The position numbers were made by a program, and so were the translations under genes. A DNA stretch of 64,000 nucleotides from Amphiscolops sp. MND2022. Taxonomy: Eukaryota. Each line of letters begins with the position of its first letter. Position 1 is the stretch's first letter. Location of the stretch: the NCBI GenBank assembly GCA_964187785.1, contig OZ076409.1:1798001-1862000 (forward strand), written 5' to 3'. Positions 480 through 39,268 of this stretch are shown piece after piece. The notes under the pieces are model-generated. The model ran no database searches and was not told where the DNA came from. It was given only the letters and a program-made list of their open reading frames with translations.

Positions 480-481
480 TA

Positions 482-17441: not shown

Positions 17442-19719
17442 AACATTTTATTTTACAAAACTTAAAATAAATTTATTTTATTCTTTTATTGTCAATTTAT
17501 TCAAATACAAACAATTTTTTTCATCCCTGTCAAAAATCTTTCATTTTCTGTCAATCATTCTCTCATTACGTAACCAAATCGTGAACAAAGAATGATCCGA
17601 ACCTCAAGAGAATGTGTAGACGTTTTTACCAGTCATTCGTTCACACTTCTGATGTGTGAAAGTTCATTTGCTTCGAAGAAAAGACGTCAAAGTGAATGAC
17701 TGACAAGCTGAATTGCAATGTTCAGAGTTGTTTTGAAACATTTGTGGGCAAATATTTGAAACTTTGAGACCTCAAACATTTTCATGTGTTCCGTTTTTTT
17801 TATGGTTCACCGAGTATCCATAAACGATTATTCGAAAAGATCAATACTTACATACGATAAGAAGCCGACAGGACGATGGAATCCTATAAATTGAGAATCA
17901 AAATCGTTCTGTAAGTTCACTATACTTCTGTCGTCTTCAGTACAACAGAATATTTCCAAAATAGACAACCAACGTCAATAAAAGGGCTAACAAGAATACT
18001 ATACCTAAGCTACAGATGTAGAAATAATGAAGATGCCACATACTATAGTATGAAGCGTTCAATATTTTTCCACGAAGATTCATTTCGAAATTTGAATGTC
18101 GGATTGTAAGTGCTGAGTTTGCCATAATGCAAGAAATTTATTCCATCTGATTAGTTTTGTAATTGGATTGTCGTTTTGTAAACGTTCTTCAGGTCTTAAA
18201 CCGTAAATTTTGAATGCGAGAACTGAATTCTTATCAAGGTCATTGCAAAATTATTCTCCGGTTCATTGATTGGATGGCATGGCGGTTTTGCAACTTTTAA
18301 TTAAAACATTTTTCTCAAAAAACAGCGCAAACAGATAGTTTAATGAGAAGAAGAAACCTAGGAAACATTGGACAGAGAAACCCAAGAGGCTTTAGGACGT
18401 TTTGACAGTGAACAAAACTGGAAACCGTCACCACTCATATAAAAAAAGCGTTTACGTGCAAAAAAAACGTAACTAAAAGTTGATGTTCTTAAATTTAGTT
18501 AGCACAAAAATGTTCAAACGTCCATGTTCCAACATGAATCATAAGTTTCATTTTAGAACAGCAGCATATCACGGGTAATGTAAGGAATAGGGTGCAAAGT
18601 GGCGTCACCTAGTCAGGAATACTGGAACTTTTCACATGCTTAAGGGTAATTTTTCAAAGACCGCGGAAATTTAGTACGCTTCCCATGGAAAAATCTTGTA
18701 GAAATACACTGAAGTTTGCACTGTTTCCTTTGAATTTTAAAAAAAAGTTCCCCGCTTTGTCGCAGACACGAACACGTTGTTTTGACAGTAAGTATCTGAA
18801 AGATTTAAAGAGGTCCCAAATGGTCAGAAGGCTTTCGAGCTCGTATAAAAATATAGTTTTCTAAAACTTTATGAACAAAACTAATAAAGGCTGACTTGGT
18901 ATCAAATTTCAAGTTGCAGACGTCTACGAAGTTCTGCATTCAATTTTACATATTGACGAGTCGATTTGGATTGTGAGTTTTAGGAACTTGAAAAGGTTGG
19001 TTCTCCTCGATGGCGGCCTATTCAAGTGTTAAAGCGCTGACTACCAGCTCCTGCGATCATGCACGAAGATTCATGGAACGATTATAGCCGTGTCGTAACG
19101 GTTATCGATGATGAGTCATGCAATGTGACATTTTACAAAGTCACCTTTGTTTGAAAATGCTTGAAATTTTTGCATGCACTTTTAAGTTGCATGCAACTTT
19201 TATTATACTTCTCTATATTTCCTAAAAAATTTTCATGCAAAAGCAATTCCCTGTTGCATTGGACTTTTGTCAAGCTACTTGAAGTAAGCTTATTAAATTT
19301 GGCAGCAGTTTTAGCTTCGAATGCAAAATATCTCCAGTCGCGTAATGAGCTGCAAAGTAGCGTTGTATTTGAGAAGCAATAATTACATCAGATGAGTAAA
19401 TGAGAAAACAAAGTGCAATTAAACATGATCGTGTCGATAACGGAAAAGGAAATATTTTCATTTTTAATTGCAATAGTGTTAACTGCAGTGTAATTCTACC
19501 GCCTAGGTTTCATGAAAATTAACCCTGCATGCAGACTTACAGCATGTTAAAAGTTGTAGCTGCATCGACTAGGCTCAAAAGCCACCGATGGAAATTCCAT
19601 GAGGTCATTCATACTCAAGGGTGTAAAATAAATAAATTATTTAAAAATAATTGCAATAAATATATTCAAATAATTTATTTTTCGGCCTTTTCAATAACAT
19701 TAATATTTATTGTTTCAAA

Positions 19720-20707: not shown

Positions 20708-21033
20708 ATTCATCGATATGGGCAAGATCAAAACCTCGATGGAAATTCTTCGTGATCAAGCATCCCAGCAGAAGATTCTGTCAGTTTTAAAACCCCTTGT
20801 GTGCGGAGTCGATTTAAGTTTATTGTTCAATTTGTTCCAAGTCGTTCAACAGTAGCTAGACCAAGCATTAAAACATGTCGACGTGATTTTCGAAAAATTA
20901 ATTGAAATAAGTGAGACCAACAATCCTCTGGCGAAATCTGCTTTCAAAAAATTTACAAAAGTACTCGAAAAAACTCTGGTTTGAAAGTCGTCGCTGACCT
21001 GAGACGGGGTGAGAGCTTTTCTGCCCCTTCTCA
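20708..21033 (+). pseudogene. hAT-like transposase remnant, left of the Gypsy insertion
   Basis: KKFTKVLEK(N)SGLKVVADL-like translation that continues after 39108. Confidence 0.45.
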
Positions 21034-21754
21034 TGTAACGGCAACTGCCCATGTCAAAATTTTCGAAGCAAAAATTCGTTCAAATCTGACGTGGCACTCA
21101 AACATGCTTCAGACGAAAGACCTGTCAAAAAAAGCAGATCCGAAATCAGAAATCGCCCCCGCGAGAGAGGACGAAAAGAGAAGACGTAGAAAACAGTCCC
21201 TAGAACACGGTGAAGTGCCCATCTATGGTCTTTGGCGTTTACACTACATAGGTAACAGAAACCGGTGTTCCAGATGCTCGCCTGAAGATCCTGCGGCGTC
21301 CTGTGCGGTGACGAGCGCTAGCGCTGGGAAGCCATGGTCAATTCGCTCCTGCTAAAAACTCAAACTTCTGATATTGTTGTGCTTATTGTGCTTTCCTTGT
21401 TGTAGTAGATTGATATGCTCGAGAGCTGCTCATTTACATCTATGGTTACCCCTTTTTGATGTCGATTTTATCAGATTCTCCAATACTATGGCTCAACATC
21501 CTCCTGTTTTCAGCCCCCTTTTTAAAGGCTAATTGAGCAGTGGTCTTGAGACATGCAAGATGCCCGTTACTTTTAGCAGTTACAGACTAGGACCAGGCCA
21601 GAGAGTTTCCAACAAGACGGTTCCCCCACCTTGGGACTGGCTCCTTCGGAGGGAAAATGAGCTAGGGCCGCGGAGATCTAGGTCCCAGATTATATTCGCT
21701 GTTCTAGTTCCTCCATTCTACGTTGCGGTTCAAGCGCCAGCGCTTATCGTTACA
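21034..21754 (+). repeat. 5' LTR of Gypsy element
   Basis: No differences from 38388-39108 found by eye. Confidence 0.98.
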
Positions 21755-21769
21755 TAGAACCTCATTTTT

Positions 21770-21789
21770 TGGCGACCACAGAGGGATCG
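21770..21789 (+). promoter_or_regulatory. Primer-binding site, tRNA-Arg-like
   Basis: TGGCGACCACAGAGGGATCG; its reverse complement ...TCCCTCTGTGGTCGCCA resembles a eukaryotic tRNA-Arg 3' end with CCA. Confidence 0.75.
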
Positions 21790-22965
21790 TCTTGGGAAGC
21801 TTTCCCTAGCGGTTTTTAAAAGATCTGGCCCCCTGGTAATCAGCGCCAAGCCCGTTTTGACTCTGAAGAAGGAGAGAAAAGCAGAGTTTTGCCCTTTTTT
21901 AGTCGTGTGACATTCTACTGGAACTGGGAGAGGCGTTGAACCAGAGAAAACCCGAAAAAATCACGTTTTCAGGTGCGAAAATGGTATTTTTAGGTGTTTT
22001 GGAAGGAAATCGATATTTTTGTGTGATGTGTTGTGTGCCCATCAGCGGGTATCTTTTTGCAGGTGCTGAAGACCGTAGCACGTGGCTACGGGTGTTTAAC
22101 AGGTTTTGCAAGCTATTTTCAGCCATTTTATGCCATGCAAGAGGGTGACTGGTGGATGGCTGACCATGAACCAGCGAGGCGAAGGGGGAGTCAAATTGTG
22201 TATTGCCTACTTCCTACTCCCATTTCTCGTGGAGACGTCCTAGAGGTATGGTTTTTGGTGGACAGCAAGTGCAATTGCAGACGATGCTAATGGTCCAACC
22301 CGCGTGTCTCTATCTGGTCTGGATGTGGAGAAAAAGCGTGGTGAAGGTGCACCCCCTGTGACCGGACGCGTCGCTCAAATGGCTCATGGTCGGTGAAATT
22401 TTTGAAAATGCACCTTTTTCGACGGGGAATCGTTGGTGCAGGTCAGTAATGTTTTGTTGTAGATGTAACGACACCCTACGAAGTGCTTTTCTGTAAAAAA
22501 GATAGCACTTGCGTGAAAAAACCCTGATTTTGCGTTTTTTTCGTGTTTTTCGTGGTTTTGAGCACTTGTGCTCAACGGAGCCAGGAAAACTTCGTGAAAA
22601 GTGTTGTAAAAAGCAGCTGCAAGGCTCGAGAAAGCTAGTACGAGGCACAGAAGGCCGTAATTTTGCCTTTGGTTGTGATAAAAGTGCCGGTCTAGCACCA
22701 GAAAATTGCAAAAAAGTGGAATTTTGACCAAAATGGCACCCAGAAACACAGGCGTACACTGGTGTAGAAGTATGAAAAAGCAGTGTACGGTGTTTTGTCA
22801 AGCGTAGTAAACCCACAGGACACTAACTGTAACTTTTACAGCGGATTCAGGCAGCCTGGGGCTGACACGGCGCAAAAAAACCGGTAATTTAAGGTGTTTT
22901 TAGGCATAGAAAGTGCATTGTCTGAAAGTCTTGAGGGTGAAGCTTAGTGGACCAGAGCGAGTTTG

Positions 22966-23243
22966 AACGCTCTTATTTTCCGTTCTAGCAATAAAAATAG
23001 CGCATTTTGGTGAAAACCGCGTGCAAAAACTCCTTTTCAGTGTTGAGAAAAGTTGAAAAACCTTGATTTTTAGTCAGTTTCAGGAGTGTCTGAGTACACA
23101 ATTAAAACCCCTTGGGCACTCTGTCTTTTTGTTAGCTAGGAGCTTCCGCGCTCTCATTTTCTGTTTCTATAATAAAAATAACGCATTGTGGTGAAAACCG
23201 CGTGCAAAAACTCCCATTCAGTGCTGAGAAAAGTGGAAAAACG
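22966..23243 (+). repeat. Two ~95-bp direct repeats in the Gypsy leader
   Basis: GGTGAAAACCGCGTGCAAAAACTCC..TTCAGTG.TGAGAAAAGT occurs twice, 180 bp apart. Confidence 0.85.
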
Positions 23244-24461
23244 CACTGGATTTGATCAATTTTCCACAAAACCGGACTGTCTCTGAGCTAGGGTCGGGTC
23301 ATCGATTCCTGAACCCTAGCCAAAAAGTGGTTGCATTTTCGTAACCACCACAAAAAGTAACGTTAGTGCCGAAAATTTGGTGGGCGTATCGTTCCCCAAA
23401 GTCGAGAAAAGCTCTCTGACGTTTTGACTCCAGAGAAGCTGAAAAAGCCGAAAAAATCCAAAACTGCAGGACCGTCAGTGCCTTATACCTAACGGGCACA
23501 ACCAATTGAGGGTTTATCCCAGTGCTACGGATAGTGGGGCGACACGTTGGTCCCATTTTGCCCGCCGTATCACTTTCTGAGGTGATCCTCTTGGTCAATT
23601 TGTGAAAAAAGTAGTCAAAAACAGTGTTTTTTTGTGTACAACGTACATAGTGGGTCGAAACCTCAAATAAGCGCTCGCGCTTCAATTCGACCTTATCAGT
23701 GGCATTGTAGGTGCCCACAGGCATAAACTACCAAGTTTGGTGCCGATCTGTGTGATACTTGTTGAGAAAATAGGAAAAACGCGGCGCCCAAAAAGGTGTG
23801 CAAAAAGGCAGTTTTTTCTTAATTTTTCCAAGTAACCCGGGTACCTTAGCCGACGGGTGGGTCTATATTGCAGCCCACCATCGTAACCTGTGCTAGTTCC
23901 TACGTCGTTGCAGAGAATTTGAGCTTGCTAGCTTCTTTCAGTGGACCGCAATCTTGAAAAAGACGTGAAAAACAGTGTATCCCTGTACATAGTGGTACCG
24001 CACGCCTGTACCTAGGTGGAACTGTGTAGAAGGGGTGCAGCTCAATTCTGTGTTTATTTTCGTAAACCCACGCGTACCTAAAATCCGCTGGTCAAGTTTG
24101 GGCTTGATACGACGCTTCCAGCGCACACACGAGCCTCTTGAGTGTTGTAGTGCAAATTTTGGAAAATCCAAAAAATCTTTGAAATTCTTCCTGTGAGTGA
24201 CCGGAGACGCTTTGCCCTGAACCAGGTTGATTTTCTGGCCCAGTGTGCTTGTGGAAAAGCGCTGTGCAAATTTGAACAGCCTACGAGCCTTAAAACGTAT
24301 TTCGAGAAATTTGGGACGTTGCGAAACAGTCAAATTTCTTAAGTCCACACCGAGACGAACCTAGAGCTAACAGCGACTCGACAAATCCCGCGTTTTTCGA
24401 GGCTTCTTTAAAGGCTACGTCCGAATCGTTGACGCCTGCTCTGCCATTGGCATTGTGTGTA

Positions 24462-27400
24462 ATGGTCCTACCAGGCCTGGAAAAGCTTGACATGAGTTCG
24501 CAGTCATGGGTGACCATAGGATCCACAATGGACGGTTCGCATGTTTCAGACGAAATGTCTGACGAAGTCACTATCGAGCAACAACGAAAGGAGGAACTGG
24601 CCGCCATGGTCCCTCCCTCCGAGGGTTCCGTTGCATCTGGAAGCTCTCGTCGAACCGAACAATGGGTCGAAGAAATCTGTCGTGAAAGAGCCAATGAAGC
24701 AGAAGAAGAGTGGCCCAACTCAAACGTGACCAACGAACTTGCCTCGTCGATGAGCCAAATGACATCCTCCATGGTTCGAAGTGCCACCCGAGACCAAGGT
24801 GTGGACCCGATGTCACCTATCTATCTAGATACTTCTACCGAAGTTGATTTATCCTGTACTAAGGCCACACTAGGGTCCCAGACTGATGGAGCTGCGTATG
24901 CGACGGCCCCTACCATGGTTTCCGGAACGGACTCCCTGTATCTGACCGCCGACTGGACAGCTGAGGACGGGATGCCCTCGGGCGCTCCTTGCGCGAGTAG
25001 CACTCGCAGGAAAGAAGACGTGACGAACCTCTCAGTGCGAGCTACGCATGGCAGTGACGACGGTACTGATGATGTGGCAACCAAGGAAGGAGAGGCTGAA
25101 GTCATCTCTCCTGAGCAATTGAGGTTCACTGCCGCCATTTCCAAAGCAATGTCCAAAGAACTGGCACCGTTACTTGCGGGACGTGACCTGGCTCAAACCA
25201 AACCCAGCGTGTATCGAGGCTCTAAGGACGGGTCTATTGATGGCTGGATCCTAGTAATGCAGCGATACTTAAAGAGAATCCAAACCAAAATCTCGGCCGA
25301 AGATCGGGCCTGGAGCATTATCGGTCACCTCGAAGGTGAGGCTCGCAACTACATCATCAACAAGGCAGAGTCTGAACGTGACACCCCCGAGAAGGTGTTC
25401 GAGTTGCTATCTAGTCGATTTGGCGCGGGAGGAAATCGCATGCAGGTGCGGCAGACCTTCCAAAGCCGCGTCCAACAAGAAAAAGAAGACTGGATGCAGT
25501 ACTTAGACGCTTTAGAGGGTCTCAGGAGCCAAGGGTTCCCGCAAGAAAGTATCACTACTAAACGCTATGAAATCTTGCAACGCTTCATGGAGGGTGTGCG
25601 AGATCCAGTGTTGAGGCGTGAACTTGCTATAGTATACGCCTCGGAAACTTTTCTTACCGAACCCCCTACCGTGGAGTCCTTGCGATTTACCATACGTCAG
25701 CTGCAACGCAATCGTCCCAGACCCACCCAACCTCAACAACCCTATGATCCCCGATTAGCCATGAGGTCTAGACCTCATCCTTTCGCACCACTACCGCCGA
25801 ACAAGATGGTTATGCCGCAGGGCGTCTTGCCACCTCCGGCGCCCCCCCAAAATGTCCCAGCTCCGGCTATCCCAGCTCCCGTCCGAGCGCCAGTAGGTGC
25901 CTGTTTTCACTGTGGGCAAAACGGACATTTTGCTCGCGAGTGCCCCAATCGTGACCAAGCTCGAAAACCAATGACTGCCTCCGAACCAGAGGGCGTGAAG
26001 GTGACCACGGAAGACACGACCGATGGTATCCTTGAAGGTCATCCAGGGATCTATCAATGCGCGAGCTGTGGCCTTTTCGATCAGGCGGAAGTGCAATGTG
26101 GAGAGCACTCCCATGCGCCGAAACCCAATGAAGAGTTGGCCTACAATCGGTGGGCTGAGGTCGAATCAGCTGGCATCGCCGCGCACACCGTGCCTTTGGA
26201 GGATGACCGCGTGTTAATGCTACATCCAGCGGAACCGCCTGCGTTTCACACTCCAATGACATTCACTTGTGGTGCCAAGCAAGTTCAGACCTGCTTGGAA
26301 CCCACAACGTTCGATCCGCAAGGACGTACGCTAATTTCAATTCACCTGTTGCTGGCAGCTGAGCAAACGCGTAGGCCGACGCTAACTCTGGCCAAGCTAT
26401 GGGTCGAGTTGTCTATCCTCTATAAACGAAACGAGTTACCTCGACCGAAAGAATGGTACGCTCCGGGAGAGTCTGCGACTCTGACGACGTATTCCCCAGT
26501 GCCAGTCTGCGCTTCAATGGATGGAGTGGATATGAAATTCGAAGCCTGTGTGGTGGTGGATGTATTTCCCCCTGGCATTTGTCTGGGTCCCCAGGAGCTC
26601 AAATGCTATAACATCAATCACCAGGAGCCCACCGGCGAAGCGCGTATAGATGAGCGTGCGTCGCTCGTAGTCTCTTTCACGGTGCCTCATGCAGCACCTA
26701 TTCCGCTGCGAGGGCTGGTGGACACCGGCTCGGGCGTCTCCATACTGACGTTTTCCGCCTTCAACAGAGTGGCAGCTCGAACTGGAACGGTACTTAAACC
26801 CTACCAAGTTGACCTGTACGCAGCCAACGGGAAGACAATAAAGACCTACGGCCTCGCAGAACACATCCATTTCCAGCTGGGAGGATACGAACTTGAAACT
26901 AACTTTGTGGTGGTAGATGATGCAATGGGTGTGGAAGAGTTCCTGCTTGGCCGGAACTTTCTTCGATCCTACCAGGTGTTAGTGGATCTAACGTCTATGA
27001 AGATTGTGGTGCGAGCACCAGTGAAGCCTGTGTGGCATCATGCTCACGCACAGGTAGGTGACACTTCAATAGCTACTCCAGTCGTTTTGGACAGTGACTT
27101 GGTCCTGCAACCTTTCGAACGAGCGGTGGCTAGGGCCAAGCTCGTCACCAACACTCTAGAGCCGCTGATTTTTCAAAGCGTAGCGCTCAATGCCTCTCTG
27201 TCTGACACTACGTTGCATAATGTCGTCTTTTTAGAGGACAGCGTGGCCACTGTCAGTGAGACAGGAACACTCTTTGTGAGTCTGATAAATCTCACCAGCA
27301 ACCCTCAACGCATGCGGTGTGGTGTACAACTGGGCACCGTAGTACCCGTAACGGTAGTATACCAAGCAGTACCTCAATGTTTGGACTCTCCCACTACAAC

Positions 27401-30041
27401 CCGCACAAAAACTGACGCCGACGACAGTCGTGCAAATTTTGTTCATAAAGTTTATAGTGAAGTGAATCTATCCACTGCTTCTGAGTTAACCTCTTCTTCC
27501 GAATTTGAGTTTTTGTCCTCTACTGACCCTAGCGAGACAGGACTATCGGAGCGCGAGATTCGCAAACGAACGGACCCAGAGCTAATGGCTCCGATTCCTG
27601 GGCCGGAATCTCAGCTCAAGGCGGTCAAGGATTTGTGGGGCGCTAGCGCCTGCGAGTCTCTCCGTAACCTCCTCGATGAATTCGATGAACTGTTCATGAA
27701 ACACAAAGCAGACATCGGTCGGTGCACTATCGCTAAGCACACCGTGGAGGTGGAACCAGGGGCTGTACCGCATCGCGAAGGTGCTCGCCGGATGTCCCCT
27801 GAGAAGGCCGAACGTGCCAATCAGGAGGTACGGAACCTCTTAGCTCTGGGAATGATACAGCCCTCGCTGTCCCCCTGGGCGAGCGGCATTGTAATGGTGA
27901 AAAAGAAAAACGGGGAGTTGCGCTTTTGCTGCGACTTCCGCCCGTTAAATGAGGTAACCATTAAGGATGCTTATCCCTTGCCCCGCATCGATGAAAGCCT
28001 GGCACGGCTAGGCAAAGCAAAGATCTATACCAGCATAGACCTTGCTTGGGCCTTTTGGCAAATTCCCGTGCGAAAAGCGGATCGCCACAAAACCGCTTTT
28101 GCTTGTGAACTAGGACTTTTTGAGTGGCGGCGAATGCCATTTGGTATGTGCAATGCATCTGCCACGTTTCAGCGGTCAATAGCGCGTGCGCTAAGGAATA
28201 TTGTCAATCGTGAGGGCAGCATGGTCATGGCCTACATTGATGATATCGTGATTGCCACGGAGACTGTGGAAGACCATATGGTACGTCTACGTGAAGTCTT
28301 TGAATGTCTCCGTGAAGCCGGTTTCAAAATGCGCGTGGCCAAATGCGATTTCATGAAATCGGAAATCAAGTATTTGGGACGAGTGGTGTCCGCAGAAGGA
28401 GTGAAGCCCGACCCAAAAGCCGTCGTCAAGTTGCGCGATTGGGAAATTCCCCGTAACAAGACGGAGATGCAGAGTTTCCTTGGATTTGCCAACTATTATC
28501 GCGAATTCATTCCTTGGCACGCTAAGCTGGTTGCACCCCTGCACGCCATCACTGGACTGAATGCCACCTTCGCCTGGGGTCCTGAGCAACAAACCGCATT
28601 CAATGAGATCAAAAAAGCCCTAATCGAGGCAACTGCGCTCGCGCAGCCTGATTCCGAAGGAGAGTTTGTGTTGGACACTGACGCTAGTGCTGTCGCCATT
28701 TCGGGTATCCTGCACCAGTGGCAAGGTCCTCCGGGTGAACGACGCCTGAGACCGATAGTTTACGGTAGCAAGAAGCTCACCACCACACAAGCCAAATACG
28801 GAGCCCCCAAACTTGAAATGTTCGCCGCCTACTATTTCATAGTGAAGAACCACAGCTATCTATGTCCCCGGAAATTCACCCTGCGGGTGGACAACCAAGC
28901 TTTGTCCTGGTTGAAAACCTACTCCACGGATCAAGCGCTAATCGGCCGATGGATTATGACCCTGGAGAAATATCACTTTCGCGTGGAACACCGCCCAAGG
29001 ACCCAACATCGAAACGCCGATGGCTTGAGCAAACGAACCAACGAGTACCGATGCCGCGAAAAACAGCTTGCACAGCAGCCAGCTGCGGGCGAACGCTGGA
29101 ACTTTCTTTCAGCTGACGAATTTGATAAACTACCTGTTGCCCCATGGTTCGACCTTCAGGGTCGAGTCATCCCGAACCATCCCGAGTTACCTGCGCACCT
29201 GCAGAACTTGGAGCCTAAGGCTCCCAACCAATTGCTACGCGTGCTTCGCCGCACCAAACGAGCGAGCAGGAGGGACAGACAAGCAGAAGCATTCGCAGCC
29301 CCTTTGCCACCTCCGCCTTCCCTTACTCTGCAACCGCACGAGGATGCCTATCCAGACTACCCTGAGGACTGGATTGATGTGACTGATGAAGCACGCGAAG
29401 ATTATCTATTGCCAACGCATGCCGTAAATGTTCCCTCGCGTACCGTCTATGCTATTGCTGGGGCGAATCCCGTTGCGTTGCAAGGTACTCCCTCGGGTGT
29501 GCGCGACTCAATTATGGCTCTTAAAGATATCAACACTGAACTTCACGAACATGCTCACACCGTGCATGGTATCAAAGATTTGATTCTAGCCCAAAACCGT
29601 AATGTTCATGTGCTAGCACTCAAAAAGTTGGTGCTGAACGAATCTATCGATCATGACGTGTTTCCCGAGAACGTGCGTGAGTTCGCACGCAACTACTACC
29701 GCCAGAAGAAAACCCTCCTGTTTATCAACAAGAATGGTGTACTTTGCGTACAATACCCTCCCAACCAACGTCCCCTGCACGAACGTCCGTGCATGATCGT
29801 CATGCCACAACTGTACCAGCATGAGATTTTATTCCGCGCGCATGACGCCATGGGACATCAAGGTATCTCCAAAGTGGTGGCTAGGATTCAAGAACGTCAC
29901 ACATGGCCTGGTATTCGGCGCAGCGTGGGCCGTTACGTTGGCCAATGCCTCACCTGTCAACAAGTTCGGGATAAGCCTGGTGACGTCCGATTCCATCTAA
30001 AGAACATCCAAAGCGGATACTTCAACGAATTGGTTCAATAA
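24462..30041 (+). CDS. Gypsy Gag-Pol, part 1 (capsid, CCHC, protease, dUTPase-like, RT, RNase H, IN zinc finger)
   Basis: CFHCGQNGHFAREC; LVDTGSG; LRFCCDFRPLN..KDAYPLPRID; YIDD (28233); LDTDAS..NADGLSKR; HDAMGH..CLTC. Ends at an in-frame TAA inside the integrase. Confidence 0.95.
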   Translation: MVLPGLEKLDMSSQSWVTIGSTMDGSHVSDEMSDEVTIEQQRKEELAAMVPPSEGSVASGSSRRTEQWVEEICRERANEAEEEWPNSNVTNELASSMSQMTSSMVRSATRDQGVDPMSPIYLDTSTEVDLSCTKATLGSQTDGAAYATAPTMVSGTDSLYLTADWTAEDGMPSGAPCASSTRRKEDVTNLSVRATHGSDDGTDDVATKEGEAEVISPEQLRFTAAISKAMSKELAPLLAGRDLAQTKPSVYRGSKDGSIDGWILVMQRYLKRIQTKISAEDRAWSIIGHLEGEARNYIINKAESERDTPEKVFELLSSRFGAGGNRMQVRQTFQSRVQQEKEDWMQYLDALEGLRSQGFPQESITTKRYEILQRFMEGVRDPVLRRELAIVYASETFLTEPPTVESLRFTIRQLQRNRPRPTQPQQPYDPRLAMRSRPHPFAPLPPNKMVMPQGVLPPPAPPQNVPAPAIPAPVRAPVGACFHCGQNGHFARECPNRDQARKPMTASEPEGVKVTTEDTTDGILEGHPGIYQCASCGLFDQAEVQCGEHSHAPKPNEELAYNRWAEVESAGIAAHTVPLEDDRVLMLHPAEPPAFHTPMTFTCGAKQVQTCLEPTTFDPQGRTLISIHLLLAAEQTRRPTLTLAKLWVELSILYKRNELPRPKEWYAPGESATLTTYSPVPVCASMDGVDMKFEACVVVDVFPPGICLGPQELKCYNINHQEPTGEARIDERASLVVSFTVPHAAPIPLRGLVDTGSGVSILTFSAFNRVAARTGTVLKPYQVDLYAANGKTIKTYGLAEHIHFQLGGYELETNFVVVDDAMGVEEFLLGRNFLRSYQVLVDLTSMKIVVRAPVKPVWHHAHAQVGDTSIATPVVLDSDLVLQPFERAVARAKLVTNTLEPLIFQSVALNASLSDTTLHNVVFLEDSVATVSETGTLFVSLINLTSNPQRMRCGVQLGTVVPVTVVYQAVPQCLDSPTTTRTKTDADDSRANFVHKVYSEVNLSTASELTSSSEFEFLSSTDPSETGLSEREIRKRTDPELMAPIPGPESQLKAVKDLWGASACESLRNLLDEFDELFMKHKADIGRCTIAKHTVEVEPGAVPHREGARRMSPEKAERANQEVRNLLALGMIQPSLSPWASGIVMVKKKNGELRFCCDFRPLNEVTIKDAYPLPRIDESLARLGKAKIYTSIDLAWAFWQIPVRKADRHKTAFACELGLFEWRRMPFGMCNASATFQRSIARALRNIVNREGSMVMAYIDDIVIATETVEDHMVRLREVFECLREAGFKMRVAKCDFMKSEIKYLGRVVSAEGVKPDPKAVVKLRDWEIPRNKTEMQSFLGFANYYREFIPWHAKLVAPLHAITGLNATFAWGPEQQTAFNEIKKALIEATALAQPDSEGEFVLDTDASAVAISGILHQWQGPPGERRLRPIVYGSKKLTTTQAKYGAPKLEMFAAYYFIVKNHSYLCPRKFTLRVDNQALSWLKTYSTDQALIGRWIMTLEKYHFRVEHRPRTQHRNADGLSKRTNEYRCREKQLAQQPAAGERWNFLSADEFDKLPVAPWFDLQGRVIPNHPELPAHLQNLEPKAPNQLLRVLRRTKRASRRDRQAEAFAAPLPPPPSLTLQPHEDAYPDYPEDWIDVTDEAREDYLLPTHAVNVPSRTVYAIAGANPVALQGTPSGVRDSIMALKDINTELHEHAHTVHGIKDLILAQNRNVHVLALKKLVLNESIDHDVFPENVREFARNYYRQKKTLLFINKNGVLCVQYPPNQRPLHERPCMIVMPQLYQHEILFRAHDAMGHQGISKVVARIQERHTWPGIRRSVGRYVGQCLTCQQVRDKPGDVRFHLKNIQSGYFNELVQ

Positions 30042-32002
30042 GATCATCTGAAAATCTGCCCCTCAGACAGTAATAACACTGGCATCTTGGTCATAATTGA
30101 CCATTTCTCCAAGTTCGCGGAAGCAGTGCCCTGTAGTCATCATGACTACGACGCTGTGACTACCTCTCGGTTGCTGTTACAAAAGTGGTTCGCCCGTCAT
30201 GGCACTCCCACTAGGATGCAGTCTGACAATGCCCCTAATTTGACTGCCGAGGTGTCCAACGAATTCCTAAAAGCAGCCCACGTTACCAAAGTAACCTCTA
30301 CAGCTAGCCATCCGAGAACCCAAGGCTTGGTCGAGCGCCAAAATCGGACGCTGCTGACCCTACTGCGAGTTTTTTGTTCCCGCCGTATGCGCGATTGGGA
30401 CCAATGTCTTGATGAGGTCATGGGTGCCTACAACTCTACGAGGCACGCTACCACTGGCTTCTCACCCTACATGCTGACCCGTGGCGTAGAGAAGGCCATC
30501 CCTCTCACGTTCTTGTATCCCGAGTTTGCAGCCAAATCATTCGAGTCGCATGAGGCGTATGTCGATCATGTATTGGCTCGCCAACAGGAAATACATGACC
30601 TGGTACGGCGTAACACGCACCAAGCCCAATTGCGTCAAAAGTTGAAGTACGACCGTGCTATACAAGCGCGAGCTTACCAAGTAGGCGAGCTCGTCTGGGT
30701 TTTCTGCCGCTACGTACCGCAAAAGGGTTCCCCGAAATTGATGCGTGCTTGGCGAGGCCCGCACAAAGTGGTACAAGTTTTTCAGGACGGTCGTGTCTAT
30801 GTACTAGACACAGGTCAAAAGGTTCATTTTGAACGTCTTAAACCGCACCACAGTGGCCCACTTGAACTTGCTACTGCACACTCGGACAGTGGTGAGGTGG
30901 TGGTCCTTATGGACCCCGAACCTGAACGTTCCGTCGACGTAGTTGATGACGACAAGTCTTTATCGTCGTATAAACCAGAACAACTACTTTCAGAGGCGTC
31001 CGATGCATCTTTGCCCTCACGTCGACGTCACTGGATGGACACTCGACTACGCACGAAACTTCGCGCAGGCGGCTCCCGCCCGCATTATCAGCAATTTGAC
31101 TATTCCACCTCGGGTACAGACGACGAACTATCCGATGCCATGTTGCCAATACCTCCTAATCCCGTTGACGAGGATATGGTGGAGCCTGCGGCTCCTCCGA
31201 CTACGTTGGATCAGTCGATATCCCCTGCCCGTGTACTACCCCAACTGTTCTCTGACCATGAGCGCGTGCGCTCACCGTCTCCGCAGATATCCTCTGAAGA
31301 AGAGACATCGTTACCAGGAACCTCAGCATCCTTGTTGACGAATCCCTCGCTAACCAACTTTCTTAGTAACTATCCCATATGGCCGACCGCCCCTCCGATT
31401 CCCCTCAAATCTGCCAGCAGCGACAGCAACGTTCAGCCCGATCTGCCTGATGCTCCCGAGACTTCGCCAGGAGCGGGGACCGCTCCTTCTTTTAAAAGGG
31501 GGAGGGGGAGACCACCCAAGGCACAGAAGAAACGGCTGATCCGAGCGAAGGCAAGGACGAGGAAGAAAGAAACACCGAGAAATGCCGAAACCGAAACTGC
31601 GATCCAGGCCGAAACGGAAGCTCCCAGAACTGCAGAGACGCTAACAGAAGCATCTGCAACTGCTCTTAGGTATCAACTAAGGAGTAAACGACAGCCGCGC
31701 TACAAGTGTGGAACCTGCGGACTGCGAGATTGTGTCTGCCTATTAGCTGTGAATGAGAACCGGAGGGTTCCCATTGGAGCCCGGGGAGTTCCTCCGGAAG
31801 AGAGAGAAAACTTGGTGTACCGCCTCACGGTGCGGGCCGAAAAAACCTACTCAGCTGTAGAGCGGTCCGGAGACTACCCTGTGGACACTATCCTGGAGAA
31901 GTTGTCACTGCCTGGGGTAGCGAAGGCCCCTTGTCCTAGGTTTAAGGAGTGGACTAGCGATGGAAAGGGCCTGGAGTTTACCCTGCCCACGGTGTTGCCC
32001 CC
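30042..32002 (+). CDS. Gypsy Pol, part 2: integrase core, GPY/F-like module, long extension with AT-hook and Cys cluster
   Basis: Same frame as part 1. DHLK, IDHFSKF, QSDNA, GLVERQN, WRGPHKV..HFERLK, KRGRGRPPK, CGTCGLRDCVC. Confidence 0.9.
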
Positions 32003-33040
32003 GTGCCTAGTAATATTGCTTTTGGACCATTCAATTTTGAAAGAGAACCTGTGCAGATGGTCCGATGCATCACTGCTGACTTGTTATGCGACAAGTATGG
32101 AGTCCAGGTGGAACCAGGAGGGGTATACAGCCCGGCTCCTCACTGGTGGCTGCTGGTAACAGCTCCACGAGTGGAGGCGCTGGTGGAACCGTTGAATCTG
32201 TTATCCTGTCTGGAGAGTCTGAGGACCCTCACCACTGTGGACTTAATACTTTGCTTCCACATCATAGACTGGTACCGAGGCAAGATGAAATTCACGTGGT
32301 GGCTGGAACTAATAATCACATGTTTCGCCACCTATCCCAGAATTCGACTATTAGATGAGTGGACTCACACCTTCGAGATCCCCTTGTTCCCCAAAGCCGC
32401 CCTGGGAACTTTAGATGCGTGGGTAAAGGCCGGCAGCGACAATCGAGCGATGCCCCGCTCAGTATGGCAAGACCTGGCTGCAGTCCAAGGGCGTACCCCT
32501 CGCGTGTGTCTGCCCCCCGATAATGGTCCCGGACGAGAGATTGTTTACCCGGGAGCCCTGTATCCGAACTCAGCCGAACACGTCTCTTACGATGAATCCG
32601 ATTTCTTGCAGGCCGAGGGCGACATAGTGTTAGCATGCCCTGCTGACCTAAAGACCAACTCTGCCGCCCTGCGATATGTGCTGCGGGAGTGCGGCATGGA
32701 AGATGTATTTGCCTTACGACCTAAGGTGGGCGAGATTCTCACTATCCCGCCTGATGTGAACCCCAACCCTAACCAAAGTATTCACTTGTTGATAGTCCGT
32801 GCTAACCAGCGCGCACCGCTGCTGACAGATGACTACTTGCGTTGCATGACGTACTTGATACAGCGCCTGATAGATAAAGGATCCACACGGGTCCACCTAC
32901 CCATTCTGGATCCCGAGAGACCGGCTTTCTCGTTGGTTAACCTGTACCATACTCTAACGAGCATGTTCGAGGGTACTGGTATTCACGTGGTTTTGCATAG
33001 CCGCGTATATGTATCAATATTAACTATAGGGCTGAAGTAG
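32003..33040 (+). CDS. Gypsy Pol, part 3 (after a 1-nt frameshift): ends in a degenerate TARG1/OARD1-like macrodomain
   Basis: Frame change at a C5 run (31998-32002). The last ~140 aa (VSYDESDFLQAEGDIVLACPADL...KVGEIL...IHLLIVR...RVHLPIL...MFEGTGIHVVLH) follow the TARG1 pattern. Confidence 0.7.
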   Translation: MPSNIAFGPFNFEREPVQMVRCITADLLCDKYGVQVEPGGVYSPAPHWWLLVTAPRVEALVEPLNLLSCLESLRTLTTVDLILCFHIIDWYRGKMKFTWWLELIITCFATYPRIRLLDEWTHTFEIPLFPKAALGTLDAWVKAGSDNRAMPRSVWQDLAAVQGRTPRVCLPPDNGPGREIVYPGALYPNSAEHVSYDESDFLQAEGDIVLACPADLKTNSAALRYVLRECGMEDVFALRPKVGEILTIPPDVNPNPNQSIHLLIVRANQRAPLLTDDYLRCMTYLIQRLIDKGSTRVHLPILDPERPAFSLVNLYHTLTSMFEGTGIHVVLHSRVYVSILTIGLK

Positions 33041-33301
33041 CCTTTTCATTTTAGTTGTCCCCATTTTTCCTTTGCCCTCAGTTCTTGCAACAGTTTTTGT
33101 AACAACCTTGGAAGAGCCTTGAAATGCTCTCGAGATGTTAATTTGTCATGTTGTTCACTCAAAGGTTTTGTTCTAGTTCGTTAGTTAGTTAGAGTTAGAT
33201 TTTAAGTTTGTAGTGGCCCCCTTACGGAGCCGATGTTGCCTGGCTGCAATTGAAGGACGAACCGACTCACGGCTCGTTCCAGAGAGAACTTGTCCCTGTA
33301 A

Positions 33302-33323
33302 GTCTAACAGTGGTCCTTTTTAG
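33302..33323 (+). promoter_or_regulatory. Candidate branch point and splice acceptor for a subgenomic ORF2 mRNA
   Basis: GTCTAAC...TCCTTTTTAG ends 12 nt before the ORF2 ATG. Confidence 0.45.
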
Positions 33324-33335
33324 ACCTATGCATTA

Positions 33336-36300
33336 ATGGCCCATTGCCCAAACAATTCAGCGCCTGCAACCGGGTCTAATAGTGCAAGGCCCCAGGAATC
33401 TGCGCGAGCGCAGAGGGTCAATCAGGCCCAATATGTCGAAGAAAGGCTGCGGGACGGTCTTTCGCCAGTAGCCGTAGCTGGGGTGGCCGCCCTACTGACC
33501 CAGCTTGAATCGATGCAAATGCTGCCAAATGCATCTTTGTCAATCACCACGGAGGTGGCAAGCTATCGTCGCACCTTGACGTGCACCAACAATGCCTGGG
33601 ATGGGCACGACCTGACTCACCAGTTCTTGGACGAAAGATCAATCGCAGTGCATGGCCCCAGCCAGGGCACCAGATTCGAACAAGAAACATCACTGCGTAT
33701 GATGCCCGTCAACGTCCCATCGCTGCCTTCCATTGCGGCACCAAATCCAGTGCAGACGACGCCGTATTCTAGCTCGATTGCTTATGGGGCACCATATGGA
33801 ACCCGGGCAACGACGACGCAGAACATTACCAATCAACCTGCCTCAAGTCGGGAGCCCTCGGGGTCCCAACCGCCATCAGTGCCTAATCTAAATCTGATTG
33901 GACGGAGTCCCAGCGAGCAAGCGGTGATTGTGGCCCTGCAGGCTGTCGCCAACTACCCCAACTCCTCTGACTTCGTTCGTGCCGTTGAGCAAAGGATTCC
34001 CGGATTGACACATTACTTGCAAGCAGCCGCTCAGCCCTCGGGCTGCGTCACCCCACCCACCACCCTAGCCGAGACTGTGTCTATGGAAGCAGAAACTACG
34101 GCTGGACCAAGCACCAGCGCCATGACCTATCCCCGTGAGGAAACTGGCCGGAAGCGACTTACTGAGGAAAATATCGTCGCTACACGCCATGATTCCGTGA
34201 CCGACAGTCCGACCAGTCGTCCCCCTCCGGACAAGCGAGCAGATGTACCCCACCAGTCGCAGATGAAAAGTGTGGGTGTCGTGAGGCCTCCATATCGCGT
34301 CGGCCACCTAGGCGTAGGCGCGCCTCAGATGTCCCTGGAAGAGGCCATCAACCGCTACGGCAGTGTGGAAGCGAATCCTGAAACGAGTCCTGTGCCCTCG
34401 GGCACAGGCTCTGCCAACATGTCCTTGGAGGTGCCCGAGACAATCGATGAGACCAATCCTCCCGCCTTTCTTCCCCCGTCCGATGATGTATCCGGCACCG
34501 TGGTGACTGGCGATAGCAAACGCATCTGGATGGCGGCAGAGTGTTTGTACCCGAACACGTGTGCGGTCAGAAGGAGTGCACCGCCGTCTGACGCCGAGCA
34601 GAAAGAAGTGAGCAGAATCACCATTGCGGCTCAGATAACTCGGTCGCTACGTGCCCGTGATGCGGACTTGAGTGAGCAAGCCTGGGAACAGCGTGCTCGA
34701 GAGCAACTGCCCGCGACACCCAACAATTATATGGCTCGCCTGCAGCATGACCTCACCGAGCAATTTCCTGCTAGGTACATGTTGCACGAAGGGGAAACCT
34801 GGGAAGCCAACGCCCGCTATGCTCGCAACATCAAATCAATGAAGCCCCTCCTGAAAGCAGCTCTGCAGCGTGCGCGCTATTGTGTGGCAGTAGATTCGAC
34901 ACTCAGGAGTGATCTCCCCATCGACAACCTTCTGCCCGATGTGCTGGTATTAACAATGCCACTCTCCCGCTTCGCTGAGGTTGCCGAGATGGTCGCGGTC
35001 ATGTACGACCCTAACCTGAGAGGGTCTCTGAGAGAGCCGCCCCCGCGACGTGTAGTCTTCACCAATCTGATCGACCACATGGCTTGTGAAGGGCTGTTAC
35101 GCAACCTGGATGCCCTCATGGCAGATACCCGCAGACCTGGGAGTGTGGCGTCCTTAGTAAACGTGGTTGCAGACGCAATGGAGCGTGCAGCAGGGATCCT
35201 TCGGGGTCGTCTGGGAGCGCTCGCGCTCTTCGCATCCCCGCCGGGATTCATGTATTGGCAACGAAGCTTGCAGCAATTTGTGTACATCCTGTCTGAGGTA
35301 TGCAAAGCGCGCCGAATCGAGTTTGCTATTTGCGCGCCAAATCTGCGGGTTGATCGAGGAGACCTACGCCCCGATGCATTGTCATACCCCGCCTTCTTTG
35401 CTGCCGTGTCAAGAGTACTAATCGCTGTGGAACGATCAGGAAATGCACAACTGACTATCGACGACGCCATACTGTTCGATCATGGAATGTGTATGGGGCG
35501 AATGGCCTTCGACTTGGACGGGAATCGCGTCATGCGAGCATCCAACATGAGTGAACGAGAGGCCGTCCGACGATACAACTGGCTGGTGCGGAAGGACAAA
35601 GAAATTCCCGTACGAGCAGAGCTGGCAGAGCTCGTGAAGGAAATTGAAGCCTGGCCTGCCACACGCACGGTCGAAAGGACCATTCCCCAGATTCGGTTTG
35701 CCGCGGGAATAGAACCCGTCAAGTTGCCCGTGGGCATGAGGTACGTCGTGGCTATAGAGGCGACCAACTTGAAGGCTGAAGTAGATGCCGCCGGAATAAC
35801 GTATGCCGAATGGTATCAGTCCAGATTCGTGGACAGGACCCTGGCCGAGGTAGCTCAAGAGCTTAACTGTCCCTTGGAAGCCTTTTGTACCAGTCTCGGA
35901 CTAGGCTGGAACATCGACGTAATAGCCTCTGAGTACTTGCTCACCAATGTGCAGACCGACAAATTGTTGGAAACCATCGGCGAAGCTACTGTAGGAGAGA
36001 TGTTAGCGCTCGCGCTAGCCATGGGCCCGACGAAGTTTGTGGCAGGTCCCCTTGCTATGCTAGTCGAGTTGGTAGTGTCCAGTGATCTAGTCACCTTCTA
36101 CAGCTACCTGATCCTCGCGCAGGGACAACTACGCAGCCTAACTCGATGGGGCCACCTCCTAAATTCCAAGGACCAGCAAGATTATGTCGCCCAGCTGGAA
36201 CGCATGCGTGCGTCCCTCCAACATTGGTTGTACTCCACCCTAGTGTTCGCCTCTGGCTTGTTCGTAGGCGTGGATCAATCGCAACCCCTCCACCATTCCG

Positions 36301-37616
36301 AGCGTCAACTCCCTGCGGAAACGGCGGGATTCCCCATGCCCCAGCAAATCGCCGATTTGACTCTGGCCGAAGTGGAGGACTTCGTGGCCGTTATGGCTTC
36401 CGTCCTGGCCCCAATCTTCGGTGCGGTCGGTGTGTGCCGGTATCCCACCAAACCACTGGCGAGAACAGTACAGGTGCATATGGTCTCCTTCTGCACCTAT
36501 CTCCAAGGACGGCCCCCACTGACCTATCAGCGAATCGTGCAGGCTGTATTGAGTGGCGAGATGCCGCACGGGTACACCACCTTGAAGTCGGAGAAACAAC
36601 TAGAAGAGAATTTGATGGGTCTGTTGCGTGCCCGCACACGAAAGGCGTGCCCTTTGCCACGAGAATACGGCCCAGTCAACTGGTACTTCGCACCTCTCAG
36701 CCTGAATGGAGTCCCCTTTAGATTCCCCTGGTCGCAGGAGTTCATACGCAAGGTGATCCGTGCCAGCACTAGTGCTGGTCCACCCGTAGATCCCCTGTAC
36801 GCCTTCAAATGCATCACTTTCCCAAATCACTACTGGAAGGAGCCACTGGGATGGCCTAGAGCAAAACCCGTTGGTCGCGCCCCTGAAGCCTTCAATCGAC
36901 AAATCCAGTATATGGAATTGGCTCGAATCCCAAACTGGATTGAAGGAGCAGCTCAGACTCGTCAGAGGAACCTGCAGAGCCGTGTGACTCCGTTCCCAAG
37001 AAAAGCTGCCTGGCGACCGCAAGCCAAGATGACAATGTCAGGGGATATGTCCATCGTCCAACACGATGAGATTAATTCTGTGCTAGGCTCTGAAGCCCGC
37101 GCAGAGTGGGAAGGACATTGTTTGGAGCTGGAAATTGCCAGCTTCCCCAAATGGAAGCGAGCTTGCGAGCTATGGAGTCAGCCTTGCTGGGTCTCCAAGC
37201 GGATATCCTTGGCCGTGGAGAGTAGAGCTGAACTCGAGAGACAACAGGCGTTCGCGCCTACCATGCTGGCACCCACAATGGCCATGTCACTAAGTCAGCC
37301 CATCGACCGGCCCGTGACTCTGGATTTGCCCACTCACATCCTGCAGGCAGAGCCTGTGAGTCCACCATCGACACAAGCCAGTCCTCAGTCATCGCAACCC
37401 CAGACCGGAGAACACGACGCTGAATTGACCCCCAGCACTATCCTGGTGCAACCAATCGCCGATTTAATGCTCCCAGAGGACCTGTCAGACTCGGAAACAG
37501 TAGTGACTGTGGTTCCTGCTCAACGTAGGGCGTCAATTGCGTCGGAAGATGCCAGCAATCCAGGAACTCCCGATGATGCCATAAAGACTCGAACTCGACG
37601 CAGCTCAGCCCAATGA
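33336..37616 (+). CDS. Accessory ORF2 of the Gypsy element, 1426 aa, unknown function, putative degenerate SGNH-fold domain
   Basis: Intact 4.3-kb ORF between pol and the 3' LTR. S/P/T-rich termini, no N-terminal signal peptide, SGNH-like blocks at ~34875-35430. Confidence 0.9.
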   Translation: MAHCPNNSAPATGSNSARPQESARAQRVNQAQYVEERLRDGLSPVAVAGVAALLTQLESMQMLPNASLSITTEVASYRRTLTCTNNAWDGHDLTHQFLDERSIAVHGPSQGTRFEQETSLRMMPVNVPSLPSIAAPNPVQTTPYSSSIAYGAPYGTRATTTQNITNQPASSREPSGSQPPSVPNLNLIGRSPSEQAVIVALQAVANYPNSSDFVRAVEQRIPGLTHYLQAAAQPSGCVTPPTTLAETVSMEAETTAGPSTSAMTYPREETGRKRLTEENIVATRHDSVTDSPTSRPPPDKRADVPHQSQMKSVGVVRPPYRVGHLGVGAPQMSLEEAINRYGSVEANPETSPVPSGTGSANMSLEVPETIDETNPPAFLPPSDDVSGTVVTGDSKRIWMAAECLYPNTCAVRRSAPPSDAEQKEVSRITIAAQITRSLRARDADLSEQAWEQRAREQLPATPNNYMARLQHDLTEQFPARYMLHEGETWEANARYARNIKSMKPLLKAALQRARYCVAVDSTLRSDLPIDNLLPDVLVLTMPLSRFAEVAEMVAVMYDPNLRGSLREPPPRRVVFTNLIDHMACEGLLRNLDALMADTRRPGSVASLVNVVADAMERAAGILRGRLGALALFASPPGFMYWQRSLQQFVYILSEVCKARRIEFAICAPNLRVDRGDLRPDALSYPAFFAAVSRVLIAVERSGNAQLTIDDAILFDHGMCMGRMAFDLDGNRVMRASNMSEREAVRRYNWLVRKDKEIPVRAELAELVKEIEAWPATRTVERTIPQIRFAAGIEPVKLPVGMRYVVAIEATNLKAEVDAAGITYAEWYQSRFVDRTLAEVAQELNCPLEAFCTSLGLGWNIDVIASEYLLTNVQTDKLLETIGEATVGEMLALALAMGPTKFVAGPLAMLVELVVSSDLVTFYSYLILAQGQLRSLTRWGHLLNSKDQQDYVAQLERMRASLQHWLYSTLVFASGLFVGVDQSQPLHHSERQLPAETAGFPMPQQIADLTLAEVEDFVAVMASVLAPIFGAVGVCRYPTKPLARTVQVHMVSFCTYLQGRPPLTYQRIVQAVLSGEMPHGYTTLKSEKQLEENLMGLLRARTRKACPLPREYGPVNWYFAPLSLNGVPFRFPWSQEFIRKVIRASTSAGPPVDPLYAFKCITFPNHYWKEPLGWPRAKPVGRAPEAFNRQIQYMELARIPNWIEGAAQTRQRNLQSRVTPFPRKAAWRPQAKMTMSGDMSIVQHDEINSVLGSEARAEWEGHCLELEIASFPKWKRACELWSQPCWVSKRISLAVESRAELERQQAFAPTMLAPTMAMSLSQPIDRPVTLDLPTHILQAEPVSPPSTQASPQSSQPQTGEHDAELTPSTILVQPIADLMLPEDLSDSETVVTVVPAQRRASIASEDASNPGTPDDAIKTRTRRSSAQ

Positions 37617-38387
37617 ACCCTGCCGCTAATGGGAGCGTTCGCGCTCCCTATAGACTCTAAACTCTACCGAAACTGTGCCTTCAAACTTATCGCTTTAGCC
37701 GGTGCTACCCTTACATGGTGCAAATTTTTGTTCATAGTTATTACTTAGTTATTGTACTGTTAGTAATGCGCTGGGTGTACGGTTAATAGAGTGCACCTGC
37801 CCCAGCTGCTTCGCCTACAAAGTAAAAAAGAATCTATTACCAAAGAAAAACTGTTATTTCTGTTGCGCACCGTTCGCGGTGTTTTTGAGTTGCCATGGTC
37901 TAGAAAAAGTCTTAGCCTTTTAGTTACAATTTTTGCCGTTTTTCCTTGTGTTTTGGTGCTCAAGCACCTTCTATCGACTGTCTAAGGAGTAGCCGAAGCG
38001 GCGCCCTCCCAAAAGAAGTTTTATGTTGTCCGAAATTGATCGAAAACTGTAAATGTCAAGTTGCACAAAAAAGGAAATTTTAGCTGACCTTGGTCGCAAA
38101 AGAAATTTTAGCGAAAACTGCTTGCCCAAACGAGTTTTAACCGACTGAAAACCTTAGCTCTCGAGCTGGTGCTAAAACCTCGTTTGCACTATTTGTAAAA
38201 ATACTAGGCAGTAAAATTTTCTTTGAAAAAAACAGCGAAATTTGTCAAAAATAGTTGCTGAAAAACAAGGACTCGTCCTTGTCCCCTGTGGTGTGGATGA
38301 TGATCCCCAGCATTCTCAGCGATGCCGTTTCCAGACGAGGCCAGATGCCGCTTGCCAGGGACGACAAGCCAGAAGCCCGGGGAGTGA

Positions 38388-39108
38388 TGTAACGGCAACT
38401 GCCCATGTCAAAATTTTCGAAGCAAAAATTCGTTCAAATCTGACGTGGCACTCAAACATGCTTCAGACGAAAGACCTGTCAAAAAAAGCAGATCCGAAAT
38501 CAGAAATCGCCCCCGCGAGAGAGGACGAAAAGAGAAGACGTAGAAAACAGTCCCTAGAACACGGTGAAGTGCCCATCTATGGTCTTTGGCGTTTACACTA
38601 CATAGGTAACAGAAACCGGTGTTCCAGATGCTCGCCTGAAGATCCTGCGGCGTCCTGTGCGGTGACGAGCGCTAGCGCTGGGAAGCCATGGTCAATTCGC
38701 TCCTGCTAAAAACTCAAACTTCTGATATTGTTGTGCTTATTGTGCTTTCCTTGTTGTAGTAGATTGATATGCTCGAGAGCTGCTCATTTACATCTATGGT
38801 TACCCCTTTTTGATGTCGATTTTATCAGATTCTCCAATACTATGGCTCAACATCCTCCTGTTTTCAGCCCCCTTTTTAAAGGCTAATTGAGCAGTGGTCT
38901 TGAGACATGCAAGATGCCCGTTACTTTTAGCAGTTACAGACTAGGACCAGGCCAGAGAGTTTCCAACAAGACGGTTCCCCCACCTTGGGACTGGCTCCTT
39001 CGGAGGGAAAATGAGCTAGGGCCGCGGAGATCTAGGTCCCAGATTATATTCGCTGTTCTAGTTCCTCCATTCTACGTTGCGGTTCAAGCGCCAGCGCTTA
39101 TCGTTACA
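38388..39108 (+). repeat. 3' LTR of Gypsy element
   Basis: Preceded by purine-rich AGAAGCCCGGGGAGTGA; TGTAACG...CGTTACA. Confidence 0.98.
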
Positions 39109-39268
39109 TCAAATTGGAATTCATAGTTTTGCAAGATGTCTTACAGTTGATGTGGGGGGGGGGGGGGGTATTCCTCAATTTTAAGTGCTTTTATCGCTCA
39201 TCGTCCGCACATTCTTGATGAAACATTGTTAAAATTGTTGTCTATCAAGTACAATAGAAGGCTGTAAT
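39109..39268 (+). pseudogene. hAT-like transposase remnant, right of the Gypsy insertion
   Basis: IGIHSFARCLTVDV[poly-G]..SILSAFIAHRPHILDETLLKLLSIKYNRRL* resembles the ..AP.TS.DVER.FS.......R C-terminal pattern. Confidence 0.45.

Follow-up and report, generated by a model that had tools for sequence, protein, structure and literature searches.

Three-base-pair target-site duplications in a lineage of giant Ty3/Gypsy-type retrotransposons from Amphiscolops sp.

The question raised by a 64,000-nucleotide stretch of the genome of Amphiscolops sp. MND2022 (contig OZ076409.1, positions 1,798,001 to 1,862,000; hereafter the window, with coordinates counted from its first letter) is whether a retroelement that it carries duplicates three base pairs (bp) of its target upon integration. 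The element, an 18.1-kb long terminal repeat (LTR) retrotransposon at 21034-39108 whose LTRs start with TGTAAC and finish with GTTACA, is flanked on both sides by TCA, while its 4-bp flanks differ (CTCA vs TCAA). A solo LTR at 53420-54192 is likewise flanked by AAG on both sides, with 4-bp flanks of GAAG and AAGA. The length of the target-site duplication (TSD) is a fixed property of the intasome and is used both in classifying and in finding LTR elements. An earlier sequence-only reading had reported both sets of flanks exactly as they are and had proposed that the matches exceed chance and reflect an unusual integrase stagger, set against a norm of 4-6 bp for LTR elements; this norm holds generally, with the Troyka group as a published exception (PMC12440569). 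The evidence described below indicates that a 3-bp stagger is very probably set by the integrase of a giant Ty3/Gypsy-type lineage to which both insertions belong.

LTR searches of the 1.07-Gb genome provided 69 insertions with both flanks, representing five families: A, that of the window element; B, that of the solo LTR; C and D, which were found through Pol; and E, a single copy. An exact 3-bp duplication was present in 61 of these insertions (A 19/22, B 13/14, C 15/18, D 13/14, E 1/1), a 4-bp duplication in one and less than 2 bp in seven, three of which are one base off; duplications of 5-6 bp were found in none of the 69. When flanks were paired at random, 3-bp matches averaged 1.8 and never exceeded 10 in 20,000 rounds. 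A set of 50 duplicated 3-mers comprises 31 different kinds, and many of the copies have identical LTRs. Canonical TG and CA ends were found at all 120 LTR loci from the four LTR searches, and two further LTRs have clipped starts, of which the one having both flanks shows no longer duplication. Placing the LTR boundaries at ATGT..ACAT, or moving them one base inward, was considered and dismissed, since copies differ from one another in the base that precedes TG and in the one that follows CA. The expected excess over chance and the recurrence of 3-bp flanks at related LTRs across the genome were therefore both borne out.

Comparison with unoccupied sites leads to the same length. The window element is inserted in a dispersed host repeat, which may be hAT-related, in keeping with a short frame at about 19000-19400 that has a motif like the hAT C-terminal dimerisation region. 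Among 14 paralogous matches to this repeat, eight were screened and six carry both anchors; in all six, 12 bases lie between the anchors, compared to 15 (10 + 5) at the occupied site. The insertion therefore added exactly three bases, and the TCA copies at 21031-21033 and 39109-39111 (like all features given here, read on the forward strand) are its left and right TSDs. One paralogue of the repeat (L071, G000:C1:50614963) carries an apparent family-C LTR start a few bases from the insertion point seen in the window. Other LTR elements in this genome behave differently. Nine copies of unrelated Gypsy families (about 40% identity in reverse transcriptase, RT) were judged by eye, and all eight readable copies have 5-bp duplications, the ninth being not evaluable. 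A BEL/Pao element at the start of the window (1-8471), which is separate from the element under study, also has a 5-bp duplication, ATGAG; its 3' LTR lies at 7618-8466 and its 5' LTR starts upstream of the window. Because these elements make 5-bp duplications in the same genome, the 3-bp trait belongs to the lineage and not to host repair. The proposal of an unusual stagger within a lineage is upheld by the agreement of five families, by the empty sites, which are 3 bp shorter in every case, and by the differing behavior of other LTR elements.

The five families are 73-94% identical to the window element in RT and RNase H, and they form one clade in both RT and integrase trees (FastTree support 99-100), which were built on reduced sets with homologues that are unnamed or only generically named. 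The family-B solo LTR (773 bp; 53417-54195 including its AAG duplication) shares only the start motif and a 79-bp stretch at 78% identity with the window LTR, while full-length family-B copies are 93-94% identical to the window element in RT and RNase H. LTRs range from 710 to 773 bp across families, and TG..CA termini are found in all five. LTR differences average 0.8 within 22 family-A elements versus 8.4 between elements, a hallmark of retrotransposition.

Target-sequence preference at the 61 duplicated sites provides a further indication of where the strands are cut. The preference is symmetric, with its axis on the central base of the 3-mer (r = 0.61 at offset 0, and no more than 0.26 at eight other offsets), and this axis excludes even staggers of 4 or 6 bp, while by itself not excluding 5 bp. 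A is found three bases to the left of the duplication at 36 of the 61 sites and T three bases to the right at 33 (combined p = 2e-8). T is rare one base outside the duplication (7/61, p = 0.0002) and is not depleted at the first duplicated base (21/61). Retroviruses are described as mostly avoiding T at the joining point (PMC4422553), and by analogy the position of T avoidance here hints at a register shift of the cut. In this small sample, the pattern would fit docking like that of a 5-bp enzyme, with the cut one phosphate inward, better than it would fit a sharper bend of the target. The middle duplicated base, read on the sense strand of the element, is A at 33 sites and T at 14 (p = 0.008); this imbalance suggests a bias in orientation, to which the unequal ends of the element may be related.

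According to the reading that we favor, ordinary reverse transcription would be followed by strand transfer within an intasome, where integrase would join the two CA-3' ends to host phosphates three base pairs apart, and filling of the two 3-nucleotide (nt) gaps by the host would yield the 3-bp duplication. An ordinary 5-bp stagger would have the same symmetry axis, and one might suppose that during repair the long unprocessed end of the element overwrites the outer base of each junction, so that only 3 bp seem duplicated. The avoidance of T one base outside the 3-mer is in line with this idea, as is the unusual U5 end, where the primer site is separated from CA by 15-16 nt. However, overwriting predicts many altered TG and CA ends together with 4-5 bp duplications, while all 120 LTR loci are canonical, a single insertion of the 69 has 4 bp, and the clipped LTR with both flanks shows nothing longer. 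Furthermore, the established chemistry of DDE strand transfer fixes the joined target base covalently, and we regard this explanation as improbable.

Still less probable is a link to Troyka, whether the element or its integrase is a member of that group or was acquired from it, in which case the trait would already have been described. Troyka does offer a precedent, as the one published LTR group with 3-bp TSDs, known from many aquatic animals and with rare 4-bp cases (PMC12440569), but the TG..CA ends, CX2CX4HX4C knuckle, GPY/F-type motif and larger LTRs and interior seen here do not match it, and capture of an integrase is opposed by RT and integrase trees, in which the five families are grouped the same way and nothing points to a chimera. 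The LTR ends are also inverted repeats (11 bp in family B) and CACTA, Harbinger and Zator transposons make 3-bp TSDs, so that a cut-and-paste DNA transposase recognising these ends might be considered, as might host repair that shortens all duplications. Both are very unlikely and already largely refuted by the controls: LTR identity is far greater within than between elements, as retrotransposition predicts, the duplicated 3-mers are diverse and not TAA/TTA, and BEL and other Gypsy elements of this genome retain 5 bp. Finally, AT-rich DNA will often yield one 3-bp match, but chance matches, or 4-6 bp duplications that have decayed or been mis-bounded, are hardly credible as the source of 61 matches where the shuffled maximum was 10, given many identical LTR pairs and empty sites that differ by exactly 3 bp.

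How the integrase might set a 3-bp stagger can be considered from its structure. A model of a natural family-A integrase (pLDDT 91.7) is closest to chains of the Ty3 and prototype foamy virus (PFV) intasomes, and Ty3 (PDB 7Q5B) is the top PDB match in both sequence (E 2e-21) and fold (E 1e-22). The WRGPH motif of the window integrase aligns to YVGPF of Ty3, and sister groups have WRGPF. Two extra residues lie between the third core strand and helix alpha-1, the start of which, in foamy virus, contacts the target backbone. This insertion is present in all four families for which the loop is covered, as well as in P0007, a protein of the E type. The corresponding segment has 29 residues in 14 of the 15 listed integrases at 56% identity or above, the 15th aligning with a 2-residue gap, and 27 residues in nearly all of about 120 more distant integrases, including those of the 5-bp control families. 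Among these roughly 120 rows below 56% identity, an insertion at the same place was seen in two fragments, and longer segments in two distant proteins. The insertion is a candidate cause of the short stagger, and we tentatively propose that the docking of this enzyme on target DNA is roughly that of a 5-bp integrase, with attack one phosphate further inward on each strand. Slightly more doubtful is the broader proposition that these giant Gypsy elements with a macro domain make up a clade, very abundant and so far undescribed, in which a 3-bp stagger evolved independently of Troyka, with TG..CA ends kept and the cut shifted inward via the loop insertion while docking remained unchanged. The determinant of stagger is unsettled even for retroviruses (PMC4422553, PMC5329712), and the close relatives and numerous young copies of this clade, together with its candidate residue difference, provide material for testing it. 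If an inward shift driven by the loop is correct, this would be the natural integrase of the Ty3/foamy type with the shortest stagger, and together with sister groups free of the insertion, such as the P0091 and P0093 types, it would represent a natural experiment on the control of TSD length.

Several observations weigh against these interpretations. Eight of the 69 insertions have no exact 3-bp match, in a sample drawn from the best 40 of 2,166-4,113 candidates per LTR search, which favors the youngest copies; the tabulated duplications exclude 26 LTRs whose partner was not retrieved, as well as a D element and a B LTR that are clipped at their 5' ends. The empty sites are paralogues about 74-86% identical, not alleles of the same locus (in one public sequencing run, whose contigs were short, none spanned the site), and the stagger itself is deduced from insertion products. 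At the target, the mirror depletion of A on the right side is weak (15/61, p = 0.13). Retroviruses with shorter staggers are described as showing more central flexibility (PMC4422553), and such flexibility was sought at these sites and was absent (pyrimidine-purine, YR, steps 25/122, p = 0.30). The loop insertion represents one evolutionary event, so that its correlation with the trait has n = 1, and Ty3 integrase has a one-residue insertion at the same loop. Ty3 makes 5-bp duplications. Lastly, independence from Troyka is based on features rather than on a tree that includes Troyka.

The window copy itself consists of a 721-bp 5' LTR (21034-21754, with TG..CA boundaries fixed by flanks that vary in other copies), a 15-nt spacer (21755-21769), an 18-nt primer binding site (21770-21787) complementary to the 3' end of a host tRNA-Arg(TCG) plus CCA, the coding regions described below, a putative polypurine tract (PPT) in the form of a purine-rich stretch (38371-38387) that is similar in all five families, and, directly following it, a 3' LTR (38388-39108) with no difference from the 5' LTR. 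The first part of Gag-Pol (24294-30041) encodes a PNMA-like Gag with a single CX2CX4HX4C knuckle, and no long form of it, followed by protease, RT, RNase H and an H2C2 finger. Continuing in frame past a stop, 30042-32159 encodes the integrase core, a GPY/F-type C-terminal region (WRGPH) and a linker, while the C-terminal part of Pol (31958-33040) includes a macro-like domain. The stop (30039-30041) lies within the integrase core and is accompanied by a frame break near 32.0 kb and by the loss of about 0.8 kb near 24.74 kb; none of these defects is present in the five other copies that were examined. Because this copy is broken and yet has identical LTRs, its template was probably already defective, and the protein that inserted it probably came from a sister element.

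In all five families, 15-16 nt separate the LTR end from the primer site, which follows a run of T, whereas the spacing is 1 nt in the control Gypsy families and 7 nt in a distant relative, L261. Judging from the sequence, the cDNA would carry a long extension past CA, which integrase would have to remove. The genome has 255 occurrences of the primer-tRNA pattern, most of them in a single tandem array, and ARAGORN calls these loci as tRNA-Arg. This array, of about 250 gene copies of the primer tRNA of the clade at a spacing of about 173 bp, is found at G000:C9:57.54-57.58 Mb.

Gag-Pol of the lineage is about 3,000-3,300 amino acids long, with the macro-like domain at its end. In the window copy, the region at 31958-33040 resembles viral clusters of the Atlas at 0.90-0.92, in one of which 14% of members have Macro, and Pfam Macro was found in the relatives P0261 and P0273; a Pfam scan of the macro-like frame of the window itself gave no match. 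A macro-like Pol tail is also present in distant metagenomic relatives. Downstream lies open reading frame 2 (ORF2; 33336-37616), which encodes an accessory protein of 1426 amino acids with an alpha/beta domain that may be SGNH-like. No Pfam family and no Atlas match were found for ORF2, and none of its 25 homologues is named. Its structure model has a pLDDT of 41.9, for which Foldseek gave nothing at E 0.001 or better; in fold comparison the best Z was 6.3, and unrelated folds were interspersed with several SGNH hydrolases scoring about 5. A protein from a sister group, P0100, has a Pfam GDSL match. An ORF2 match was sought in the examined family-B copies and none was found.

Elements of the clade measure 15-19 kb. 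The interior is 16.6 kb in the window copy, and most copies of family A have one of about 17.5 kb; some B and C copies that carry deletions are shorter. LTR starts lie 17-18 kb apart in A and D and 14 kb apart in C. Over about 1.3 kb of 5' untranslated region (UTR), families A and B are 91% identical in DNA sequence (window 23034-24358 compared to L104, L105, L108 and L109), although their LTRs are almost unalignable, a sequence pattern that suggests recombination between families. Five family-B-like Pol matches about 14 kb apart at G000:C1:34.05-34.11 Mb suggest a tandem array of elements. Searches of this genome for the P0091, P0093, P0258 and P0299 types gave nothing above 55-66% identity, and a scan of metagenome and viral contigs with a single integrase for copies of the wider clade gave nothing. 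Alignment scans for the wider clade returned 80 and 13 loci, among which L261 was the only clear relative (RT 53%); following its element there is one LTR end together with a primer site, and no flank pair. Elsewhere in the window are a near-perfect 117-bp palindrome (60024-60258) and repeats resembling miniature inverted-repeat transposable elements, with internal tandem units (55060-55671 and 50561-51372).

These properties bear on how such elements are detected. By default, LTRharvest requires a TSD of at least 4 bp and a distance between LTRs of at most 15000 (PMC2253517). Because their LTR starts are 17-18 kb apart, families A and D fail these settings on size alone, while C, at 14 kb, stays within the distance limit. 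A 3-bp TSD alone need not hide an element, since Kuafuorterviruses, or Troyka-type elements, were reported to have been recovered with LTRharvest defaults (PMC11673190), and a short TSD would be likelier to cause mis-set boundaries than the loss of every copy. The suggestion that LTR finders would miss this lineage consequently stands in part: A and D are dropped for their size and boundaries are likely mis-set, but the 3-bp TSD does not in every case conceal the element. Default settings of this kind would drop or mis-bound a group of repeats that is abundant in this genome, affecting both repeat annotation and dating.

With respect to known systems, the lineage has the structural traits of Ty3/Gypsy (Metaviridae), as far as its sequence indicates, except for the usual TSD length. 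The Pfam domain order of the window Pol is that of Ty3/Gypsy (Gag knuckle, protease, RT, RNase H, H2C2 finger, integrase core), and the lineage shares TG..CA direct LTRs, a tRNA primer site, a PPT, and an H2C2 and DDE integrase with a GPY/F-type C-terminus, here in a GPH variant. It is unlike typical members in its 3-bp rather than 4-6 bp TSD, in the distance of 15-16 nt from LTR to primer site, in the macro-like end of Gag-Pol, in the large ORF2 of family A and in the two-residue integrase loop insertion. Assignment to BEL/Pao or Copia was rejected, as neither the Peptidase_A17/DUF1759/DUF5641 set nor an integrase preceding RT is present, these Pfam families being confined to the neighboring control element. 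Among retroviruses, staggers are given as 4 bp for PFV, 5 bp for HIV-1 (human immunodeficiency virus 1) and 6 bp for Rous sarcoma virus (RSV) and mouse mammary tumor virus (MMTV) (PMC4422553, PMC5329712). The lineage resembles retroviral intasomes in its integrase fold, presumably in its chemistry, and in a target preference that is weakly palindromic and has an A/T signal three bases beyond the duplication. In contrast, its stagger is shorter than any of those given in these two papers, and it shows neither T avoidance at the first duplicated base nor central YR enrichment.

The closest precedent for the duplication itself is Troyka (Kuafuorterviruses), described as an LTR group with 3-bp TSDs that is found in many aquatic animals, with rare 4-bp cases, in a study that gives 4-6 bp for other LTR retrotransposons and, in 2025, used 3 bp with CG ends as a clear Troyka indicator (PMC12440569). 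Within the literature searched, which did not extend to Repbase, Dfam, GyDB or subscription journals, no TG..CA Gypsy group with 3-bp TSDs was found, and the passages on 3-bp TSDs in PMC12905397 and PMC10741241 concern DNA transposons. Troyka elements, as described, and those studied here are alike in being LTR retrotransposons with protease, RT, RNase H and integrase in that order, 3-bp TSDs and an occasional 4-bp exception. However, six Troyka hallmarks other than the TSD fail in this lineage. Troyka LTRs have CG..CG ends rather than the TG..CA of all five families, the Troyka knuckle is CX2CX8-10HX4C rather than CX2CX4HX4C, and the GPF/Y motif is reported as missing from Troyka, while a GPY/F-type motif is found here. 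Troyka LTRs measure 100-400 bp, compared to 710-773 bp, and its interior 1.5-7.7 kb, compared to more than 12 kb in long copies of the present lineage; moreover, Troyka mostly has a single Gag-Pol, as opposed to the 1426-amino-acid ORF2 of family A and the macro-like Pol tail. The 3-bp TSD probably arose independently of Troyka, as a second origin among LTR elements, which suggests that a short stagger has originated at least twice. A Gypsy-type lineage that combines TG..CA termini with 3-bp duplications uncouples the 3-bp TSD from CG ends.

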